Assembly: GCA_013152165.1 (NCBI GenBank)
Contig: JAADGY010000061.1
Location: 1 to 24,528 of the forward strand
DNA from: a bacterium
GTDB taxonomy: Bacteria; Patescibacteriota; Microgenomatia; JAADGY01
Length of the DNA: 24,528 bases
Direction: 5' to 3'
The notes under the pieces are model-generated. The model saw only the letters and a program-made list of their open reading frames with translations. It was not told the origin of the DNA and did not search any database. Below, piece by piece: positions 1,901 through 19,135 of this stretch (position 1 is the first letter of the stretch; every line of letters starts with the position of its first letter). Position numbers and translations under genes: made by a program.

Positions 1901-3946
1901 TTAGGTAAAAGAGATGTCTTTAATTTTAACCTGGTTTAGGTAATCTTGCAAGTTGGGATAAGAAGATAGTTGTGGAGCGATTTTTTGAGCATAAAGCTTG
2001 GCTTGGTGGGTAAGTTTGATGTCGTTTAGCAGGGGAAAAAGCTCTTTAGGAAATCCATGTTGAGCCAAGCCGAAAATTTGGCCGGGGCCGCGCAGTTTCA
2101 AATCCCATTCGGCCAGTTGATGACCGGAGTGAATGCGGGTTAAAAGCTTTAAGCGTTTGTAGATACTGGAAGTAAATTTAGTAGGGGCCAGAAGACAGTA
2201 TGATTTTTGGCCCAACCGCCCTACCCGGCCCCGCAGTTGGTGGAGTTGAGCTAGGCCGAAGCGTTCAGCTCCTTCTATTAAAATTATGTTGGCCTGGGGG
2301 ATATCGATGCCGACCTCGATAACAGAAGTACTGATTAAGATTTTAACTTGGCCGGTTTTAAACTGATTGATTATTTGTTCTTTTTCTTTTGGCTTAAGCC
2401 GGCCGTGCAGGAGGCCGAAGTTGGAAAAGGCGGGAAATTTTAAAGTTAGTTGGCGGTAAAGCGAGGTGACGGCCTTGATGTCTTTCATGGTTTCGTGAGC
2501 TGAGTCTTCTATCAGGGGGGTGACGATGAAGGCTCGGCAGTCAAATTGATTGACTTGGTCGATTATCCATTGATAGGCTTTGGCCAAGTGTTCGGGCCTT
2601 AGCAGGTGGGTGGTGGTGTTTTTGATTTGGTCGGGCAAAGGTTCCAGGTAGGAAACATCTAAGTGGCCGAAAAGGGTGAGAACCAGGGTCCGCGGGATAG
2701 GGGTGGCTGACATAGTTAGAACATGCGGAGTAGGATCGGTGTCGATTGACTTGGTGCGCTGTCTAACGCCGAAGCGGTGTTGTTCATCGATGATAACCAG
2801 GCCGACTGTTTTTGGCTGGGACCTAAACAAAAGAGCATGGGTGCCGATGAGGATGTGCCAGTCATCACCCTTTTTCTTGTTGGATTGAGTGTGCAGGCTG
2901 ATGTTTATATCAGATGGCAGGTAGGAGGTGAATTTTTGGTAGGTTTGTTGAGCTAAGACCTCGGTTGGGGTCATAAGGATGGTTTGGTAGCCGGCTAGGT
3001 GGGCGGCGCAAGCGGCCCCGGCGGCGACCAGGGTTTTGCCGGAGCCAACGTCCCCCAGAAGGAGCCTGTTCATAGGTTTTTTAGCCTGCATGCTGGTGAG
3101 AATGGTGGTTAGGTTGTCTTTCTGCGAGGGGGAGAGGGTTAGGCGGCTTGATTTTTGTATTAAGCTTGGCAGTTTGGCGGCGATGCCGGCTGTTAAAGAA
3201 AAGATCGGCCGTTTTTGGCGCCATTGGGCCTGCTTGACGGCGGTGTTTATCTGGTAGACAAGTAAGGTTTCAAACAAAAATCTTTGTTTGGCTTGTTGAG
3301 CTTGGGCGGTTGATGTCGGGGCGTGGAGGTGGAAGAAAGCTTGGGGGTAGGAGGGGTATTTTTGGGCAGTGAGGATAAAGGCCGGCAGAAACTCCGGCGG
3401 CAGTAAAGAGGCGAATTTAGTTAAGTAAAAATTAATGACTCGGCGGATTTGCTTGTTGGTCAGACCCTTGGTTTCAGGGTATATGGGTACGATTTTGAGC
3501 GAGTGGATTAAAGGTTTGCCGTTTTGGATGATTTCATAACCAGCGGCCTCCAGCCGAAAGCCGCTTATGTCTTTGTCGATTTTGCCCCAAAAAACCGCCT
3601 GACTGCCGGGCTTAAGGGTTTTTATAAGATATGGCTGGTTGTAAAAAACAACTTGGACAGGCAGGTTTTGATAAATGATGTGAAGTATTTGCAAAGACAA
3701 GCCCCTTCGGCTGCGGATGGTTTGGGTTGATTGGACGGCTCCTTTGATGGCGACTTTAGTTTGGGGTTGAAGGCGGCTGGGCGGGGTTAGGCGGCGGTCT
3801 TCCCAGCGATTGGGCAAAAGATAAAAGAGGTCCTTAAGGGTGTTTACACCCAGTTTATTAAAGCGCTTGGCTAGAGCCGGCCCGATAAGGTATAAATCTT
3901 TAACAGGGGTATCAAGAGAAGGCTGGGATGGGTTTTTAGAAGCCAT
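1901..3946 (-). CDS. recG: ATP-dependent DNA helicase RecG
   Basis: N-terminal wedge/OB region, Walker A GDVGSGKT, DEQH, SATPIPRT, QLHQLRGRVGR, DLKLRGPG. Confidence 0.96.
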   Translation of the reverse strand: MASKNPSQPSLDTPVKDLYLIGPALAKRFNKLGVNTLKDLFYLLPNRWEDRRLTPPSRLQPQTKVAIKGAVQSTQTIRSRRGLSLQILHIIYQNLPVQVVFYNQPYLIKTLKPGSQAVFWGKIDKDISGFRLEAAGYEIIQNGKPLIHSLKIVPIYPETKGLTNKQIRRVINFYLTKFASLLPPEFLPAFILTAQKYPSYPQAFFHLHAPTSTAQAQQAKQRFLFETLLVYQINTAVKQAQWRQKRPIFSLTAGIAAKLPSLIQKSSRLTLSPSQKDNLTTILTSMQAKKPMNRLLLGDVGSGKTLVAAGAACAAHLAGYQTILMTPTEVLAQQTYQKFTSYLPSDINISLHTQSNKKKGDDWHILIGTHALLFRSQPKTVGLVIIDEQHRFGVRQRTKSIDTDPTPHVLTMSATPIPRTLVLTLFGHLDVSYLEPLPDQIKNTTTHLLRPEHLAKAYQWIIDQVNQFDCRAFIVTPLIEDSAHETMKDIKAVTSLYRQLTLKFPAFSNFGLLHGRLKPKEKEQIINQFKTGQVKILISTSVIEVGIDIPQANIILIEGAERFGLAQLHQLRGRVGRLGQKSYCLLAPTKFTSSIYKRLKLLTRIHSGHQLAEWDLKLRGPGQIFGLAQHGFPKELFPLLNDIKLTHQAKLYAQKIAPQLSSYPNLQDYLNQVKIKDISFT

Positions 3947-11614: not shown

Positions 11615-12100
11615 ATGATAGATCAACTTAGACAGGTTGATGGAGAGCAAAGAGAGCGGCAAATATTATTGCAACAGTTTATTGAGCAGGTGTGGGAAGG
11701 ATTGCCGAAGATGTTGTTGTCATTACCTTTGTGTGAGAGATGGTGTGTGGTAAAAAAATTACATGCGCCAAGATTGGCGGTGTTTGGGAAAAGGTTAGCT
11801 TTTAATCAGTGGATCAGGCAAGCAGTGGAGTAGGCACAACAGGCGGTTCCTTCCCGCGAAATTAATGAGGCGATGGCGAGGGTAGAGATAACAAATTTGG
11901 TTTTGTGGGAGGTGTTAAAGCGGAAAGGATTGGTGGGGTTAGGTGAGGGAGGTAGATACGTGATAGATGAACAGGTGCAAAGTTTAGTTGAAATAATGAG
12001 TGTATTAAATAATTTTATTCCATGGAGATATGGAGTCAGGCCAGAAGATGTGAGAGTGGAAGTTTTTAGAAAAGCTTTGGAGGAATTAGAGACCCTGTAA
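11615..12100 (+). pseudogene. Hypothetical 161-codon frame interrupted by one in-frame TAG (11831-11833)
   Basis: ORFs 11615-11833 and 11873-12100 share a frame and are joined by 13 sense codons; no family recognised. Confidence 0.45.
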
Positions 12101-12161
12101 GCCTTTGGTGTATTAAACCTATCGGGAGCTGATAGTGATTTGGGAGAAAGGTAAGAAAGAG

Positions 12162-12515
12162 TTATTTGTGGGCAGTGATGCTTTGGACTAGTTTTTTGAA
12201 AGCTTCGGGTTGGTTTACGGCCATTTCAGATAAGGTTTTGCGGTTTAAGTTGATGTTTTGTTTTTTTAGCTTGTTAATAAATTCAGAGTATTTAGTGCCG
12301 ACTTGACGCAGAGCGATGTTTAATCGAGTAATCCATAAGCGCCTAAATTGGCGTTTGCGAAGCTTGCGGCCGGCAAAGGCATATTGTCCGGCGTGCAAAA
12401 CAGCCTCGTGGGCGACTTTGTAAAGCCGATGGCGAGTCATGCGGTAGCCTTTGGCGGCTTTCAAGATTTTTTTGTGACGGCGCCGCCTGATGATTCCGGT
12501 TTTAACACGAGTCAT
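12162..12515 (-). CDS. rplT: 50S ribosomal protein L20
   Basis: MTRVKTG..RRRHKKILKAAKGY; RKRQFRRLWITRLN; follows rpmI. Confidence 0.97.
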   Translation of the reverse strand: MTRVKTGIIRRRRHKKILKAAKGYRMTRHRLYKVAHEAVLHAGQYAFAGRKLRKRQFRRLWITRLNIALRQVGTKYSEFINKLKKQNINLNRKTLSEMAVNQPEAFKKLVQSITAHK

Positions 12516-12520
12516 TGTAG

Positions 12521-12730
12521 TTAAACTCCTAAATACTTTATTACCTTTTTAGCCCAAACACCTTTAAGCAGGGCTAGTTTTTTGTAGCGCCTTTTTTGGC
12601 TTTTGGATTTTTTACGCATTAAGTGATTGCCAAAAGCAACTCGGTGAAGAACTTTGCCGGTTTTGGTCACCTTAAAGCGCTTCAAAAATGATTTTTTTGA
12701 TTTTAGTTTGGTTTTGGTTGGTGTCTTCAT
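12521..12730 (-). CDS. rpmI: 50S ribosomal protein L35
   Basis: KLKSKKSFLKRFKVTKTGKV..HLMRKKS; ATGA overlap with the infC stop. Confidence 0.93.
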   Translation of the reverse strand: MKTPTKTKLKSKKSFLKRFKVTKTGKVLHRVAFGNHLMRKKSKSQKRRYKKLALLKGVWAKKVIKYLGV

Positions 12731-13239
12731 TTCTTTTTTGGCCCCAGGGTGGTTATTAGCCGGCGGCCGATTAATTTGGCCGGCTGTTCCACCACGGCCG
12801 TATCTTGTAAATTTTCAAGAACCTTTTGCAAGGTTTTATGGCCGAAATCTTTATAGTTAATAGTTCGACCTGTAAATTTTACCACAACTTTAACTTTATG
12901 TCCCTCTTCCATAAACTCAGCCGCCCGCTGGCAAAGCCGATTAAGGTCGTTTTGGCCAATAAATGGGGTTAATCTAATTTCTTTTAGGTCTTTTGATTTG
13001 ACCTTGGATTTCTTGTGTTTTTTAGCTTCTAGGTATTTGAACTTGGCGTAGTCTATGAGTTTACAGACTGGGGGTTTGGCTTTGGAAGTAATCTCGACCA
13101 GATCAACGTTTTGTTGCTGGGCTAGTTTGAGGGCTTCGGGCAATGACAAGATTCCGATTTGCTTGCCCTCGGCGTCGATAACTCTTACCTGATTGGCTTT
13201 AATTTGATGATTGATGCGGTGGTAAAGGCGTTTATTCAT
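12727..13239 (-). CDS. infC: Translation initiation factor IF-3
   Basis: INHQIKANQVRVIDAEG, DLVEI..PPVCKLIDY, KEIRL..KVKV; thrS-infC-rpmI-rplT order. Confidence 0.96.
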   Translation of the reverse strand: MNKRLYHRINHQIKANQVRVIDAEGKQIGILSLPEALKLAQQQNVDLVEITSKAKPPVCKLIDYAKFKYLEAKKHKKSKVKSKDLKEIRLTPFIGQNDLNRLCQRAAEFMEEGHKVKVVVKFTGRTINYKDFGHKTLQKVLENLQDTAVVEQPAKLIGRRLITTLGPKKK

Positions 13240-13245
13240 TAGGGT

Positions 13246-14988
13246 TTAACAGCTTAACTTGGCTGATTTGCGGTCGATTTCGGCTTGGAGGTCTGCAAGA
13301 AAAGATTCAAGGTTTATGTTATTAAGTTGCTTTCCCTGGCGGGTGCGGATTGATATTTGTTGATTTTCCATTTCTTTGTCGCCTATTATTATAGCATAGG
13401 GAATTTTGGCTTCTTGGAAGAAACGAAGCCGGCGGTTAAGCGAGCCTTCGGTTTTTAAGACTGAGCGGATGGAGCGGGATTGGAGTTGATCAAAGATGTT
13501 ATCGGCGTATTGATTGTGCTTGTCGCTTATCGGCAGGACCCAGACCTGTTCAGGAGACAGCCAGGTGGGGAAGGCACCGGCGAAGTGTTCGATAAGGATG
13601 CCGATAAACCTTTCGATCGAGCCCATGATGGCGGCATGAATCATAACCACCCTTTCCTTTTCACCTTTTTCATTGATGCAGAAAAGGTCGAATCTTTCGG
13701 GCATATTGATGTCAAGCTGAATGGTAGCTACCTGCCATTGGCGGTTGAGCGAATCGCGGGAGATGAAATCGATTTTAGGGCCGTAAAAAGCGGCTTCACC
13801 GGCGGCTATCGAAAAATCCTGGGTGTTTTTTTGGGCGATTTGGCGGATGATTTTTTCGGCTTGTTGCCAAAGTTGAGGGGTGCCAAGGTAGTTATCGAAG
13901 CTTTTAGGATCATGGAAAGAAAGCCTAACCTGAAGCGGGAAGTCAAAAGTTTTGTAAAAAGTGTTGACGACGTCCCAGATTGAAGAGATCTCTGACTCTA
14001 TTTGATTAAAACGGCAAAAGACATGAGCATCATCTTGAGTAATGGATCTAACTCGGGTTAAGCCGCCAAGCTCGCCGGTTTGTTCGTCGCGATAGACCAT
14101 GGTAGTTTCGGCGTAGCGTTGGGGCAGTTCTTTATAGCTTCTTTGGCGGCTGGCGTAAATTTGGGTGTGGTGGGGGCAGTTCATGGGCTTTAAGGCCAGC
14201 AGGTGGCCTTCGCGGGTTTTGATTTTAAACAATTCATCGGCAAATTTTTGCCAGTGGCCGCTTTTTTCATAGAGGTCTTTTTTGGTAATGTGGGGAATAA
14301 CGACTTTTTGGTAGCCTTTTTGGGATCGAAGTTGCCAGACAAAGTTGTCCAGGAGGCTGCGGATAAGGGTGCCTTTGGGCGTCCAAAGCGGCAGGCCGGG
14401 GCCGACAAGGGAGGAAAAGGTAAATAAATCTAGCTGGGGCCCAAGTTTTTTATGGTCCCGTTTTTTAGCCTCTTCAAGCTGGGCAAGGTAGCGGTCGAGT
14501 TCTTCTTGAGTAAAAAAGCAGGTGCCGTAGATGCGGGTTAGCATTTTGTTTTTTTGATCGCCGCGCCAGTAAGCGCCGGCAACTGAAAGAAGCTTGAAGT
14601 GCTTGATTGCTTTGTTGGGCTTATCTATGTGTCCGCCTCGGCACAGATCGATAAAATCACCTGATTTGTAGACGGTGATGGGCTGGTTGTCTTTTTGAAG
14701 CTCATCGATTAGTTCAAGTTTGAAGGGATTGTTTTTAAAAAGCTGGCGGGCCTTTTGGCAGGAAAGTTGCTGCTTTTCAAACTTGGACCAGTTTTTGACG
14801 ATTTTTTTCATGCGCTTTTCGATTTTTGGCAGGTCTGCTTGCGAGATCGGCTGAGGCAAATCAAAATCATAGTAAAAACCATCGTCGATTACCGGTCCGA
14901 TGGTTGGTTTGGCATCAGGCCACAAAGAAACCACGGCGGCGGCTAAAAGATGGGCGCATGAATGGCGAAGTTTGTCTAAATCGTTCAT
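13246..14988 (-). CDS. thrS: Threonine--tRNA ligase (lacks the N-terminal TGS domain)
   Basis: Editing domain RHSCAHLLA/DLCRGGH, KPMNCPHH, motif 2 YRDEQTGELGGLTRVR, AAFYGPKID, HAAIMGSIERF; start 14988 because the longer ORF runs through the terminator. Confidence 0.97.
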   Translation of the reverse strand: MNDLDKLRHSCAHLLAAAVVSLWPDAKPTIGPVIDDGFYYDFDLPQPISQADLPKIEKRMKKIVKNWSKFEKQQLSCQKARQLFKNNPFKLELIDELQKDNQPITVYKSGDFIDLCRGGHIDKPNKAIKHFKLLSVAGAYWRGDQKNKMLTRIYGTCFFTQEELDRYLAQLEEAKKRDHKKLGPQLDLFTFSSLVGPGLPLWTPKGTLIRSLLDNFVWQLRSQKGYQKVVIPHITKKDLYEKSGHWQKFADELFKIKTREGHLLALKPMNCPHHTQIYASRQRSYKELPQRYAETTMVYRDEQTGELGGLTRVRSITQDDAHVFCRFNQIESEISSIWDVVNTFYKTFDFPLQVRLSFHDPKSFDNYLGTPQLWQQAEKIIRQIAQKNTQDFSIAAGEAAFYGPKIDFISRDSLNRQWQVATIQLDINMPERFDLFCINEKGEKERVVMIHAAIMGSIERFIGILIEHFAGAFPTWLSPEQVWVLPISDKHNQYADNIFDQLQSRSIRSVLKTEGSLNRRLRFFQEAKIPYAIIIGDKEMENQQISIRTRQGKQLNNINLESFLADLQAEIDRKSAKLSC

Positions 14989-14999
14989 TTTGTATTTAT

Positions 15000-15022
15000 A
15001 AAAAAACCTCCCGGTGGGGAGG
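15000..15022 (-). terminator. Intrinsic terminator (attenuator 3:4 helix) 11 nt upstream of the thrS ATG
   Basis: Minus strand CCTCCC-CACC-GGGAGG followed by T7. Confidence 0.85.
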
Positions 15023-15048
15023 GTGGATGTCAACCACTACCCTACCCC
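15016..15048 (-). promoter_or_regulatory. Antiterminator (2:3 helix) of the thrS attenuator
   Basis: GGGG-T-AGGGT (15048-15039) pairs with ACCCT-CCCC (15024-15016), sequestering the terminator left arm. Confidence 0.7.
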
Positions 15049-15055
15049 GCTTGTT

Positions 15056-15103
15056 TTAAGCGGTGGTAAATAAGATAGTGGTGTGGTTGGCTGTAGACAG
15101 CAT
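15056..15103 (-). CDS. Thr-rich leader peptide of thrS (MLSTANHTTILFTTA), not in ORF track
   Basis: ATG CTG TCT ACA GCC AAC CAC ACC ACT ATC TTA TTT ACC ACC GCT TAA: 5 Thr in 15 codons including two tandem pairs, upstream of a terminator and thrS. Confidence 0.8.
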   Translation of the reverse strand: MLSTANHTTILFTTA

Positions 15104-15110
15104 TAATTGT

Positions 15111-15138
15111 ATTTTAAAGCAGGAGGAGTTAATGTCAA
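15111..15138 (-). promoter_or_regulatory. Sigma70-type promoter of the thrS leader
   Basis: TTGACA (15138-15133), 16 nt, TAAAAT (15116-15111), 7 nt, leader ATG. Confidence 0.7.
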
Positions 15139-15230
15139 GGGCCGGCAAGGTTGTTTAGGCTTGGGCTTGGGGTTGTGAATTTTAATCAACAGGCGGCTGG
15201 CTTAAGCTGGCGGTGTGGCATAATTGTAGT

Positions 15231-16532
15231 ATGGCGAAGCAGATGGAGTTAACCAACACAGCCGGTGCCGGAGAGGAAGTGTTTCAAGTAAGCGAGTTTA
15301 ATCAGTTTATCAATAATTTGATTTCACTGCGCCAGTTTAAGGTTGAAGGCGAGATAAGCGAGATAAACATCAGACAAAACAGGTGGGTGTTTATTACCTT
15401 GAAAGATCCGGAAAAAGAAGAGGTTTTGAAAGTGTTTTCGACCTTTTATCAAGTGAGGGAAAATCTGGAGTTTTTGCAGGTGGGAGCCCTGGTGCAGGTG
15501 TGCGGCTATCCAAAGTTGTATGGCAAAAGCGGCCGGTTCAGCCTGTCGGCTTATAAAATCCTGCCGGTGGGGGACGGCAAATTGCAAAGAGCCTTTTTAG
15601 AGTTAAAGGCCAAACTGCAAGCCGAAGGCTTGTTTGATGAATCGCGGAAACGGCGATTGCCGGGGTATCCAAGGGCGGTTTTTTTATTAACAGCGCCGGA
15701 GTCAAGGGCTTATTCTGATTTTATCAAGGTTACCCAGGAAAGGGGGTTTGGGGTTATAAAAATCAAACATGTACCAATCAGTGCCCAAGGAGCTGAGGCG
15801 GTGCCGTCGATCCTGCGGGCTTTTCGGTTGGTAAGGGCCCAGGCTGACGAGGCTGATTTGGCGGTTATAACCCGGGGAGGCGGCAGTTTAGAGGATTTGC
15901 AGGCGTTTAACGATGAGGAGGTAGTGCGGGCGGCGTTTGGACTGCCGATTCCGCTGGTGAGTGCGATTGGGCATGAAGCCGATGTTTCGCTTATAGACTA
16001 TGTGGCGGATGTGCGGGCTTCGACCCCGTCTAATGCGGCCGAGATTATTTTTCCGTCGCTGGCCGAGGTAGGCCAGGAAGTGGAGCTGTTAAGCCGAAGC
16101 TTGGCCCATTATATGAACCAAAAGCTGGAAGCGGCTTGGTATAGATTTATGATGTTAAAAAAGAGCTTGGCCGGTTCGTTTACGGCGCCGATGGAAAGGT
16201 TAAGCAACTTAGAAACGCGGCTGAAGTCATTACTGGTTCATTATCATCAGCGTTTGGGCTGGCTGGAGGGGCAGCTGCCGGTTTTGTCTGCCCGGCTTGT
16301 AGAAAATCAAGCTCAAGCGTTAAGGTTGGGTTGGCAAAGGTATCGGCAGTATAAAAGCTTGGTGATATCGTTTGACCCGCGGGCGGTTTTGAAGCGGGGG
16401 TATTCAATCACAACCGATGCTTCCGGCCGGTTGATCAAAGACGCCGGACAGATTCAAATCAACAAGGTGTTGATGACCTACTTAAGAAAGGGTAAAATAA
16501 AATCACAAGTAAAGGAGGTTTATGAAAAATAA
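15231..16532 (+). CDS. xseA: Exodeoxyribonuclease VII large subunit
   Basis: OB-fold VEGEISE, RGGGSLEDLQAFNDEEVVRA, SAIGHEADVSLIDYVADVRASTPSNAAE, VLKRGYSI; start moved to ATG 15231 (6 nt after TG-G-CATAAT). Confidence 0.95.
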   Translation: MAKQMELTNTAGAGEEVFQVSEFNQFINNLISLRQFKVEGEISEINIRQNRWVFITLKDPEKEEVLKVFSTFYQVRENLEFLQVGALVQVCGYPKLYGKSGRFSLSAYKILPVGDGKLQRAFLELKAKLQAEGLFDESRKRRLPGYPRAVFLLTAPESRAYSDFIKVTQERGFGVIKIKHVPISAQGAEAVPSILRAFRLVRAQADEADLAVITRGGGSLEDLQAFNDEEVVRAAFGLPIPLVSAIGHEADVSLIDYVADVRASTPSNAAEIIFPSLAEVGQEVELLSRSLAHYMNQKLEAAWYRFMMLKKSLAGSFTAPMERLSNLETRLKSLLVHYHQRLGWLEGQLPVLSARLVENQAQALRLGWQRYRQYKSLVISFDPRAVLKRGYSITTDASGRLIKDAGQIQINKVLMTYLRKGKIKSQVKEVYEK

Positions 16533-16737
16533 GAAAGCGGGCAGTATTAATGATGACTTCAAGCTGTTGGAGGAGTTGGTGTCTAAACTATCAAGCGAGC
16601 AGGATAATTTGGAGGAGTCGATAGGCTTGTTTAAACAGGGAGTTGAGGTGGTCAAACGACTAAAAACCAAACTGACTAAAGCCAAGGTAGAGGTGGAGCA
16701 GATTCAGGAAGAGTTGGAGACGGCGGTCAAAGAATAG
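16522..16737 (+). CDS. xseB: Exodeoxyribonuclease VII small subunit
   Basis: LEELVSKL..LEESIGLFKQG pattern; overlaps the xseA end; AGGAGG upstream. Confidence 0.9.
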   Translation: MKNKKAGSINDDFKLLEELVSKLSSEQDNLEESIGLFKQGVEVVKRLKTKLTKAKVEVEQIQEELETAVKE

Positions 16738-16743
16738 CCCAAA

Positions 16744-17655
16744 CTAGCTTTTCAGCCAATCATCAGAGCCAAAGAAGAAGTCTAAAAGCTGTTTGATTCC
16801 CTTGTTTGTTTCGAGGGGGTTGCCGTTTAATTGAATGGTTACCAAGGTGCGGTTGGTGGTTCTTTTGAGTTTGACTTTAAGTTTTTTGGCGTTTTTGCCT
16901 TTGAGGTTGAGTTTTTGGCTAAAAAACTGGTGCAGTTTTTTTTCGATAGCCGGCAGTTTGTTTTGGGAAATGTAGCCGGCTTCGTCGATGTCAGGCAGTT
17001 GGTCTTTGTTGGTGGATTTAATTGAGCGGATGCCAAGCAGCATTTCTTTGTAGCGGCGGGCGATTTCTTCGGTTCGGCGAACCGAAGCTGATTCTTTGAG
17101 AACTTGTTTGTAAGCTTGGATCATGGCCTGCTGGTCGGGAATGCCGACTAAGGCGCGGGCGTGCCCTTCGGAGATAAGGCCGGCGATAAGCCCGTCTTTT
17201 AGAGCGTCAGGCAGCTGAAGCAGTCGGAGAGTGTTGACCACGTAAGGCAGGCTTTTGCTGATTTGTTCAGAGATTTCTTTTTCGGAAAGGCCGAATTCCT
17301 GGACCAGACGCTGGAAGGCAATGGCTCTTTCGATGGGGTTTAAGTTTTCCCGCTGGACGTTTTCCACGATCGCCATTTCAAGCATTTTTTGAGGAGTGGT
17401 TTCTTTGACGATGGCCGGGACTTGTTGGAAGCCGGCTAGTTTAGCGGCCCGCCAGCGGCGTTCGCCGGCGATGATCTGATAACCGGCTGGGGTATGGGCG
17501 ACAACTAAAGGTTCAAGAACGCCGTGTTTTTTGATGGAGCTGACTAAATCAGATAAGCTGTTGTCGTCGAAGTGGCCTCTTGGCTGAAGGGGGTTGGGTT
17601 GAAGGATGTCGATGTCAAGCAAAACAATTGCCTGAGATGATGATGTCTGAGTCAT
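16744..17655 (-). CDS. parB: ParB/Spo0J-family partition protein
   Basis: PNPLQPR, GVLEPLVV, YQIIAGERRWRAA, ENVQRENLNPIERA, HTH region, LISEGHARAL. Confidence 0.93.
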   Translation of the reverse strand: MTQTSSSQAIVLLDIDILQPNPLQPRGHFDDNSLSDLVSSIKKHGVLEPLVVAHTPAGYQIIAGERRWRAAKLAGFQQVPAIVKETTPQKMLEMAIVENVQRENLNPIERAIAFQRLVQEFGLSEKEISEQISKSLPYVVNTLRLLQLPDALKDGLIAGLISEGHARALVGIPDQQAMIQAYKQVLKESASVRRTEEIARRYKEMLLGIRSIKSTNKDQLPDIDEAGYISQNKLPAIEKKLHQFFSQKLNLKGKNAKKLKVKLKRTTNRTLVTIQLNGNPLETNKGIKQLLDFFFGSDDWLKS

Positions 17656-17656
17656 G

Positions 17657-17914
17657 TTAGTTTTGACTTATAATGTCGACGAATTTTTTACCCCATTTCT
17701 GGCGGAAAGCGACGATGCCGTCTTTGATGGCGTACAGGGTAAAGTCGCGGCCTTTTTTAACGTTTTTGCCGGGGTGGAATTTAGTGCCGTGCTGACGGAC
17801 TAAAATATTGCCGACCTTTACTGTTTGACCGCCGAAGAGTTTGACTCCTAGTCTTTTGCCTTTGCGGCGGGAACCTTGTCTAGCTTTACTGCCGGTGGCT
17901 TTTGATTTGGCCAT
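17657..17914 (-). CDS. rpmA: 50S ribosomal protein L27
   Basis: [41 protein letters not shown]. Confidence 0.96.
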
Positions 17915-17920
17915 AGTATC

Positions 17921-19135
17921 TTATTTCCTAATTAGAATATAAATCTGTCTTCTAATAACTAAATCCCTTTGACTTTTGATAGTAAAAGGACCTTTGTAGA
18001 GAGTATAATCGAAGACACCCCACTTGTCAATTAGATTTAAACTGTAAAAACGGTTGTGAAAATGAAAAGTGGGCAGAATAACAACCAGTCTGGTTTTGGA
18101 TTTAGGCTTGAGGATTTTAAGCTGGTTTTTTAACCATTTTGAATAAAGCTTGGTTAGATTAAAAATCATTCGTTCGATGGCTTGGTGAGTGAGGGGTGTG
18201 TTGGGTTGGCTGGCGGTGACGTAGTATTGCTTCCCGGCTCGGTTGGTTTTGGTCCTAAAGGATGGGCCAAGATATGGTTCGGTAGCAACGGCGATGATGG
18301 TTTTTTCTTCGATAATCTTGTTAAGTTTAGTGGAGTCGCCTGGGTATAAGATAGCTTTGTTGGTTAGGTTATGGTGGCTAATAAAATGGTCGATGTTTTG
18401 CTTAAGCCCAGCAAATGAAGTGGGGTGTTTCTCGATACCGATAACCGATAGGCCCAGGTCAAGGGCTTCGATAAGAATGGTGCCGCTGCCGGCGAATGGA
18501 TCAAGCAGATATTGGTCAGTTAAGTAAAGATTAGGAGGCTGATTAAGGCTAAGGTTGACCATTATACGGGCGATTTTGTGAGGCACCATGCCTTCAGCCG
18601 GCTGAACAAAAGGTTTATGCTTGTCTTTTCTCATGTAGGCTTCCCATGGGTAGTACCAGGTCAGCTTCAGCAGGTAAAAGGTGTTTTTAAGATGGACGAT
18701 GATAAAAACCAGGGTGTGCTTTAGCTGCCGGGAGTTGAGCCTGGGCCGTTTGAGGTTAATATATGAGAGCTTGATGGTTTGTTTGAGTTGCTGAGTTAGC
18801 TGTTGGGATAGATCAGGTTGGTAATGGTCGTTGGCGTAGGCAAAGATGCCGAATTTTTTGATGGAGGGGTCGGCAAGTTTTTTAAAATGGGTTTGGATAA
18901 GCCGAGGGATTGCGTCTGCGGTGTGGGCGGTGTCGATTTGCTCGGCGGTCCAAACTGTGCCGCCAAGCCGGTTGATGGTAACGGCGGGTATAGGTTGATC
19001 GGTTTCGATGATAAAGTTGGAAAAATGAAGTATGGGGTTGGTTATTTTTATCTTGTGCTGAAGCAAGACTTCTTCAACCTCGGTTTGGGCGAGCGGAATA
19101 GAGGTGGGTGAGAGATGAAACCAGGTTTTAATCAC
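17921..19135 (-). CDS. Class I SAM-dependent amino-methyltransferase, Trm11/Trm14(UPF0020)-like; GTG start
   Basis: Motif I LLDPFAGSGTILIEA, motif IV-like TEPYLGP, GMVPHKIARIMVNL preceding the Rossmann fold; substrate unknown. Confidence 0.75.
   Translation of the reverse strand: MIKTWFHLSPTSIPLAQTEVEEVLLQHKIKITNPILHFSNFIIETDQPIPAVTINRLGGTVWTAEQIDTAHTADAIPRLIQTHFKKLADPSIKKFGIFAYANDHYQPDLSQQLTQQLKQTIKLSYINLKRPRLNSRQLKHTLVFIIVHLKNTFYLLKLTWYYPWEAYMRKDKHKPFVQPAEGMVPHKIARIMVNLSLNQPPNLYLTDQYLLDPFAGSGTILIEALDLGLSVIGIEKHPTSFAGLKQNIDHFISHHNLTNKAILYPGDSTKLNKIIEEKTIIAVATEPYLGPSFRTKTNRAGKQYYVTASQPNTPLTHQAIERMIFNLTKLYSKWLKNQLKILKPKSKTRLVVILPTFHFHNRFYSLNLIDKWGVFDYTLYKGPFTIKSQRDLVIRRQIYILIRK

Follow-up and report, generated by a model that had tools for sequence, protein, structure and literature searches.

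A probable leaderless threonine leader-peptide attenuator ahead of thrS in a Patescibacteria genome

Introduction

In Escherichia coli, leader-peptide attenuation governs pheM-pheST and thrL-thrABC, whereas thrS is controlled by a translational operator bound by its own product, threonyl-tRNA synthetase (ThrRS), and in Firmicutes thrS is controlled by a T-box. Almost nothing is, to our knowledge, known about gene regulation in Patescibacteria (Candidate Phyla Radiation), a group with few regulators whose members are unable to make most amino acids.

Attenuators on synthetase genes are documented in several other bacteria: Streptomyces has classical ones on trpS and leuS (PMC1262725), and bacilli have them on hisS paralogues (PMC2965389). 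In Deinococcus deserti, whose genome is dominated by leaderless mRNAs, 14 leaderless leader peptides have been reported ahead of amino-acid genes and of synthetase genes such as cysS (PMC4007540). RNA-seq of Streptomyces lividans further revealed a leaderless thrL ahead of thrS, proposed to act in a Thr-dependent manner (PMC8079986, Table 4), with only two Thr in the peptide and no clear U-rich terminator found (PMC8079986). Given this report, the view taken in the sequence-only reading that preceded this work, namely that thrS is controlled by an operator or a T-box, is too narrow. Its other statement on precedent, that no such element had been described in this lineage, stands within the searchable literature, in which no paper that we found connected attenuators, T-boxes or leaderless mRNAs to Patescibacteria. 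Here we describe a leader ahead of thrS that, judged from its sequence, is very probably a Thr leader attenuator (that is, a known mechanism in a lineage for which we found no description of it).

The thrS operon

The window (that is, the whole stretch of 24,528 nt that was analysed) belongs to a 0.75-Mb genome assembled in 100 contigs and carries a compact series of translation genes on its minus strand:

13246-14988, minus strand: thrS, threonyl-tRNA synthetase, 580 aa (Pfam tRNA_SAD, tRNA-synt_2b and HGTP_anticodon)
12727-13239, minus strand: infC, encoding IF3 (Pfam IF3_N and IF3_C), 6 nt past thrS
12521-12730, minus strand: rpmI, encoding L35 (Pfam Ribosomal_L35p), with a 4-nt overlap with the end of infC
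12162-12515, minus strand: rplT, encoding L20 (Pfam Ribosomal_L20), which closes the presumed operon

The order thrS-infC-rpmI-rplT is common to the window and E. coli, where it forms part of the thrS-infC-rpmI-rplT-pheMST cluster. With spacings of 6, -4 and 5 nt between successive genes, attenuator control of thrS would by extension reach the whole of this tightly packed operon. The thrS start codon lies at 14988, a correction of one position to the sequence-only reading (14987), and ThrRS homologues align from residue 1. By Pfam, the enzyme consists of the tRNA_SAD, class II core and anticodon-binding domains, without an N-terminal TGS domain. On the plus strand, xseA (Pfam Exonuc_VII_L) starts with an ATG at 15231 and is separated from thrS by a 242-bp divergent spacer; as xseA runs the opposite way, a terminator within this spacer cannot belong to an upstream gene.

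Homoserine dehydrogenase (PF00742) and threonine synthase (TIGR00260), both present in 14 of 14 control genomes, were not found in the 92%-complete assembly, on which basis the organism is probably a Thr auxotroph. Given that neither of these two genes was found, thrS is the only obvious Thr-responsive target.

Anatomy of the leader

The spacer contains, in the direction of thrS, a complete series of candidate regulatory parts:

15133-15138, minus strand: -35 hexamer TTGACA of the leader promoter, read directly and invariant in four of four family members
15111-15116, minus strand: -10 hexamer TAAAAT, 16 nt past the -35 hexamer and 7 nt ahead of the leader ATG
15056-15103, minus strand: leader short open reading frame (sORF) MLSTANHTTILFTTA*, 15 codons plus TAA, with the ATG at 15103
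15058-15085, minus strand: segment 1, the 5' arm of helix 1:2 (transcript nt 19-46) in the minimum-free-energy (MFE) structures
15031-15052, minus strand: segment 2, AAGCGGGGUAGGGUAGUGGUUG, the G/U-rich 3' arm of helix 1:2 (nt 52-73) in the folds
15048-15039, minus strand: GGGGUAGGGU, the part of segment 2 that serves as 5' arm of the antiterminator in masked folds
15016-15024, minus strand: segment 3, ACCCUCCCC, the 3' arm of antiterminator 2:3 in masked folds
15000-15022, minus strand: predicted intrinsic terminator 3:4, CCUCCC-CACC-GGGAGG (15022-15007) followed by U7 (15006-15000)

Direct reading confirmed the promoter, its distance to the ATG and the Thr content (5 of 15 residues) noted in the sequence-only reading, as it did the 7 nt between the leader stop codon and the start of GGGGUAGGGU and the 11 nt between the end of the U7 tract and the thrS ATG. 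The promoter match TTGACA-16-TAAAAT is the best within 12000-18000 (score 11/12). The sORF reads ATG CTG TCT ACA GCC AAC CAC ACC ACT ATC TTA TTT ACC ACC GCT TAA and so includes five Thr codons (ACA4, ACC8, ACT9, ACC13 and ACC14); with Thr at 5.1% of codons genome-wide, the probability of at least 5 in 14 is 4.8e-4. Segment 1 sits within the sORF and spans Thr8, 9, 13 and 14, and segment 3 overlaps the 5' arm of terminator 3:4. The leader thus has the constituents of a classical attenuator, namely a Thr-enriched sORF, a terminator ahead of the gene, an antiterminator that excludes it and a 1:2 arm that lies in the sORF.

Leaderless starts and terminators in the genome

The start geometry of the genome as a whole bears on whether such a leader could be translated. 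Of 564 long ORFs in the window genome, 101 have a TANNNT box that ends exactly 6 nt ahead of their first ATG and a further 85 have one that ends 5 or 7 nt ahead of it, over a background of approximately 18 per position; SD-like motifs are found at approximately 100 genes. Read from promoter spacing, the leaderless start is the normal and dominant geometry for first genes of this genome, which supports translation of the sORF and simultaneously makes a leaderless leader locally unremarkable. The leaderless arrangement proposed in the sequence-only reading is therefore upheld as geometry, but not as a peculiarity.

Under a strict definition (a perfect stem of 6 bp or more, 4 or more G-C pairs and a T-run of 6 or longer), the 0.75-Mb genome has 13 terminators, and the leader terminator is among the 7 that are intergenic; such terminators are rare, yet approximately 4-fold enriched in intergenic DNA. 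Loose hairpin plus T-run patterns in the window genome, however, were not enriched after genes compared with inside genes, and we counted the scarcity of canonical terminators against the attenuator reading.

One of the 7 intergenic terminators follows a GGM-rich frame, taken as the groEL 3' end (contig C9). On contig C48 (approximately 2090-2200, plus strand), TTGACT-17-TATAAT is followed after 5 nt by an ATG and immediately thereafter by a strong terminator (GCCGGT-CATGGC-ACCGGT + A + T8) located 43 nt ahead of the rpoB start; this element may be an attenuator of rpoB.

A scan of the window genome for other sORFs that are enriched in one residue and have a terminator behind them left the thrS module as the only convincing case. 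A Tyr-rich sORF on contig C71, with no synthetase gene behind it, was dropped, and a GGM-rich match was taken as the GroEL C-terminus.

Folding and switch logic

The unconstrained MFE fold of 15110-14985 contains helix 1:2 and the terminator at -42.1 kcal/mol (z = -4.8; 0 of 200 shuffles equally stable). Helix 1:2 is composed of ACCACUAUCU/GGGUAGUGGU + UACC/GGUA + CCGCUU/AAGCGG, and antiterminator 2:3 (GGGG-U-AGGGU/ACCCU-CCCC) forms once segment 1 is masked. The three mutually exclusive helices that had been paired by hand in the sequence-only reading are thus recovered by folding, with helix 1:2 slightly longer.

Ribosome positions were modelled by masking the RNA that a ribosome would cover, with the mask reaching from the 5' end to a point 12 nt beyond the start of the A-site codon (counted from its first base), and the remainder was refolded. 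In this series, the free leader RNA adopts helix 1:2 and the terminator, and a modelled ribosome at UAA likewise leaves the terminator to form (-15.1 kcal/mol), in agreement with the earlier expectation that a ribosome at the stop codon would lead to termination. When ACC13 or ACC14 is placed in the A site, the modelled stall instead favours the antiterminator (-19.8 versus -15.1 kcal/mol with the terminator forced). With the stall placed at Thr8 or Thr9, the terminator is still preferred (by 7 and 4 kcal/mol, respectively), as the apical part of helix 1:2 (UACC.ACCGCUU/AAGCGGGGUA) persists and sequesters GGGGUA. The proposal that stalling on Thr codons gives read-through therefore holds in the constrained folds for Thr13/14 and fails for Thr8/9. 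Given that only the Thr13/14 stall flips the modelled fold, the 3' tandem ACC ACC is the likely control point in the window genome.

How far such folds can be trusted was gauged by shuffling segment 2 with its composition kept: 7% of the shuffles for the window leader, and 0-61% of those for other leaders, still returned the full three-state logic. Much of the effect evidently stems from the G/U-rich composition, and the fold logic by itself is weak evidence.

Conservation in the close family

The same module lies directly ahead of thrS in all three other genomes of the close family, which belong to two other genera and have ThrRS proteins 72-73% identical to that of the window. Each member has a promoter of the form TTGACA-16/17-TAAAAT-7/8-ATG, and Thr-rich sORFs of 15-16 codons stand at the matching place in L002, L003 and L004. 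In these three sORFs (MIELINATTQLITTP, MIELITTTTKLVTTP and MQLNYRPTTTLSTATV) the Thr residues are retained and the remaining residues diverge. GGGGTAGGGTAGTGGT in segment 2 is invariant across the four sequences, antiterminator and terminator are present in the folds of every member, and the leader is single-copy and found solely ahead of thrS in four of four genomes. A metagenome scan with ThrRS returned no further member of the close family, with all matches at most 66% identical.

Helix differences within the family are mostly one-sided changes from G-C to G-U, together with a paired insertion that gives the window leader its longer apical helix. Segment 1 was off register by one codon between genera in the MAFFT alignments (A1 and A2); helices were compared by hand from the folds, and pair counts on these alignments were left out. 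The sequence-only reading had proposed that related genomes be checked for a conserved Thr-rich sORF and covarying helices: the sORF and the helices are indeed conserved, but four sequences with an invariant segment 2 are consistent with the structure and provide no statistical covariation. Furthermore, the Thr codons ACC and ACU complement the G/U-rich segment 2, and codon conservation within the family is hence confounded with RNA structure.

The family data also bear on the idea that the leader is an independent small gene (that is, an approximately 100-nt transcript that yields a 15-aa micropeptide or a trans-acting sRNA, with thrS expressed by constitutive read-through and no sensing of Thr). 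The unit from promoter to terminator is complete on its own, and trans-acting sRNAs derived from attenuators are known (for example, rnTrpL (PMC6614838)). However, the peptide is unconserved except for Thr and the unit is always linked to thrS. The antiterminator, moreover, overlaps the 5' arm of the terminator in 10 of the 10 leaders folded, and the U-tract ends just ahead of thrS, which has no other promoter, so that an essential gene relies on read-through. We regard an independent small gene as quite improbable.

Leaders ahead of thrS in other Patescibacteria

Beyond the close family, at least six other Patescibacteria lineages have, ahead of thrS, Thr leaders of unrelated sequence but with a matching three-state fold:

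L005: Thr-rich sORF MKSLIVITTNTTTL ahead of thrS
L010: Thr-rich sORF MKSGFLTITTSIN ahead of thrS
L013: Thr-rich sORF MIAVLTVTTTTSV ahead of thrS
L065: Thr-rich sORF MLIRLSLAATTTTR ahead of thrS
L109: Thr-rich sORF MIRLSTTTTTTNP ahead of thrS
L052: sORF with seven consecutive Thr ahead of thrS
L048:740-1190, plus strand: Thr leader MNSFSTTTTRILNLS with a GTG start, a terminator and a 61-codon ORF, then thrS

A -10 box lies 6-9 nt ahead of the start codon in L005, L013, L065, L109 and L052, is ambiguous in L010 and is located farther upstream in L048. The last of these loci departs from the usual layout, with an additional small gene of unassigned function placed between attenuator and thrS. Across ten leaders, 40 of 50 Thr codons are ACY, read by the sole assembled tRNA-Thr (GGU); this share equals genomic usage and indicates no special codon bias.

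When 133 non-redundant regions upstream of thrS were scanned without bias for a sORF enriched in any residue and followed by a terminator, there were nine matches for Thr and one each for Ser, Gly and Ile, with one match in the reverse-complement control. This result weighs on the notion that a short ORF, hairpins and a T-run merely co-occur ahead of thrS by chance, a notion that can draw on the 7% of segment 2 shuffles that yield switch-like folds and on loose terminator-like patterns being equally common inside and outside genes. Against it stand the Thr specificity of the scan, the Thr count of the leader and the z-score of its fold, a terminator that is one of only seven of high quality in intergenic DNA and the retention of the module in three sister genomes. 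The comparative data effectively refute chance co-occurrence, to which we give hardly any credence.

Other Patescibacteria have a different solution at the same place. Reduced T-box-like leaders, with a TGGNACC motif, an ACC specifier and a truncated Stem I, stand ahead of thrS in sister families (L018:1261-1427, L009:1331-1465, L006, L007, L008, L015 and L017), with Rfam T-box scores (33.6 bits for L018, and 27.6 bits) far under the gathering score of 93. On the ThrRS tree, lineages with Thr leaders interleave with those that have T-box-like leaders and those with neither, and the leader label requires at least 5-6 changes. The count of lineages with neither is inflated, because in 33 of 152 scored ThrRS loci (about a fifth of the sampled Patescibacteria homologues) the reading frame stays open for more than 40 aa at the N-terminal side, an extension by which the true start is displaced.

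Phe-rich leaders provide a parallel. One, MSRANKFFFFFFNLAQAGDGSVV, with a terminator, lies in the rplT-pheS gap of G015:C3 (L178), and another, MINQVQFFAFNFTSL, also with a terminator, lies in the corresponding gap of G029:C5 (L179); both are just upstream of pheS. These two leaders constitute a pheM-like arrangement in Patescibacteria and indicate that the device serves another synthetase in this class. In the window genome itself, pheS (contig C91) is preceded by a plain leaderless promoter, with no Phe leader. In G025 (minus strand of L010), a Phe-rich sORF, MQIPTKTWRAKKVNFFFFA, with a terminator lies approximately 1.1 kb downstream of thrS. Upstream of the pheS promoter on contig C91 (60-225, plus strand) there are three tandem near-perfect palindromes of approximately 30 nt (GGCACTATCACACTCTAGAGTGTGATAGTG-like).

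Taking the Thr and Phe leaders together, we lean, by a modest measure, towards the view that leader-peptide attenuators without a 5' UTR are a recurrent Patescibacteria device that tunes thrS and pheS to tRNA charging, with five or more gains or losses and with reduced T-box-like leaders as their alternates at the same locus.

Relation to known regulatory classes

Like E. coli pheM-pheST and thrL-thrABC, the window leader combines a short ORF rich in the cognate codon, 1:2/2:3/3:4 logic and a terminator just before the gene, and as in pheM the target is a synthetase gene. It differs from the E. coli attenuators in that the target is thrS itself and in having neither a predicted 5' UTR nor a Shine-Dalgarno sequence. 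The resemblance is one of architecture: at the gathering score, tRNA is the sole Rfam match in the window; Thr_leader (RF00506) has no match at E <= 10 in 14700-15400; and Phe_leader (RF01859) reaches 16.2 bits (E = 7.4) compared with a gathering score of 55, a weak match to the terminator that does not place the leader in that family. Compared with S. lividans thrL, the window leader has a canonical terminator and an antiterminator, more Thr codons and an unrelated sequence, and belongs to another phylum. The D. deserti leaders, again from another phylum, have mapped start sites, whereas the start site used here is predicted from the promoter.

A T-box on thrS would share with the window leader the gene, the signal (that is, tRNA-Thr charging) and the output (terminator versus antiterminator); the proposed sensor here is the translating ribosome, whereas a T-box binds the tRNA directly. 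This similarity makes it necessary to consider a factor-dependent riboregulator, in which ThrRS or uncharged tRNA-Thr (in the manner of a degenerate T-box) binds the G/U-rich segment and decides between terminator and antiterminator, with the sORF being incidental. The thrS genes of E. coli and Firmicutes are controlled in such ways, T-box-like leaders precede thrS in sister Patescibacteria and the family-invariant GGGGTAGGGTAGTGGT could mark a binding site. However, the T-box model (RF00230) has no match at E <= 10 in 14700-15400, and the leader lacks both a specifier loop and the TGGNACC motif. Nor is an operator of the E. coli type discernible: sequence reading found no 7-nt anticodon-like loop, the hairpin loops (AAAAC and CACC) do not resemble an anticodon and next to the thrS ATG stands a terminator and its U7 tract rather than an anticodon-arm mimic. 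In addition, the in-frame ATG at leaderless distance from a -10 box and the run of Thr recur with otherwise unrelated leader sequences, a pattern not expected of a site that binds protein or tRNA. A binding-dependent switch therefore appears very unlikely, if marginally less so than an independent small gene.

Proposed mechanism

On the basis of leader anatomy, constrained folding, conservation in the family and recurrence in other Patescibacteria, all of which support the Thr attenuator on thrS put forward in the sequence-only reading, we consider it highly likely that the element is a classical, ribosome-mediated leader-peptide attenuator of transcription through which thrS responds to charged tRNA-Thr. 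Several of its steps are inferred from sequence and modelled folds, namely where transcription starts, that the sORF is translated, that transcripts end at the U-tract and that the switch answers to Thr-tRNA; they can be envisioned as follows. Transcription would start approximately 7 nt past TAAAAT, either on the A of the leader AUG or on a neighbouring nucleotide, and translation would thus be leaderless. With ample Thr-tRNA, the ribosome would reach UAA and cover the first G residues of segment 2, whereupon segment 3 would be left to pair with segment 4 (that is, the 3' arm of the terminator) and the CCUCCC/GGGAGG-U7 terminator would end transcription shortly before thrS. With zero translation, helix 1:2 would form and termination would be expected as well. 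With scarce Thr-tRNA, the ribosome would stall when its A site reaches ACC13 or ACC14 and would hold segment 1, freeing GGGGUAGGGU to pair with ACCCUCCCC as helix 2:3; the terminator would consequently lose its 5' arm, and RNA polymerase would read into thrS.

Implications

As the mechanism is a textbook one and has precedents in Deinococcus and Streptomyces, the value of this finding lies in extension and annotation rather than in a new principle. If the proposed mechanism is true, Patescibacteria monitor tRNA charging directly and couple transcription to translation, and would do so on leaderless transcripts, a geometry used for roughly a quarter of the genes of the window genome. The synthesis of IF3, L35 and L20 would likewise be tied to the supply of Thr-tRNA. 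The patchy distribution of Thr leader, T-box-like leader or none at one locus represents a clean case of regulatory turnover, and the leader would, if it operates as suggested, provide a natural system in which to study how transcription is coupled to translation when initiation is leaderless (70S-type), in ultra-small bacteria that are auxotrophic for amino acids.
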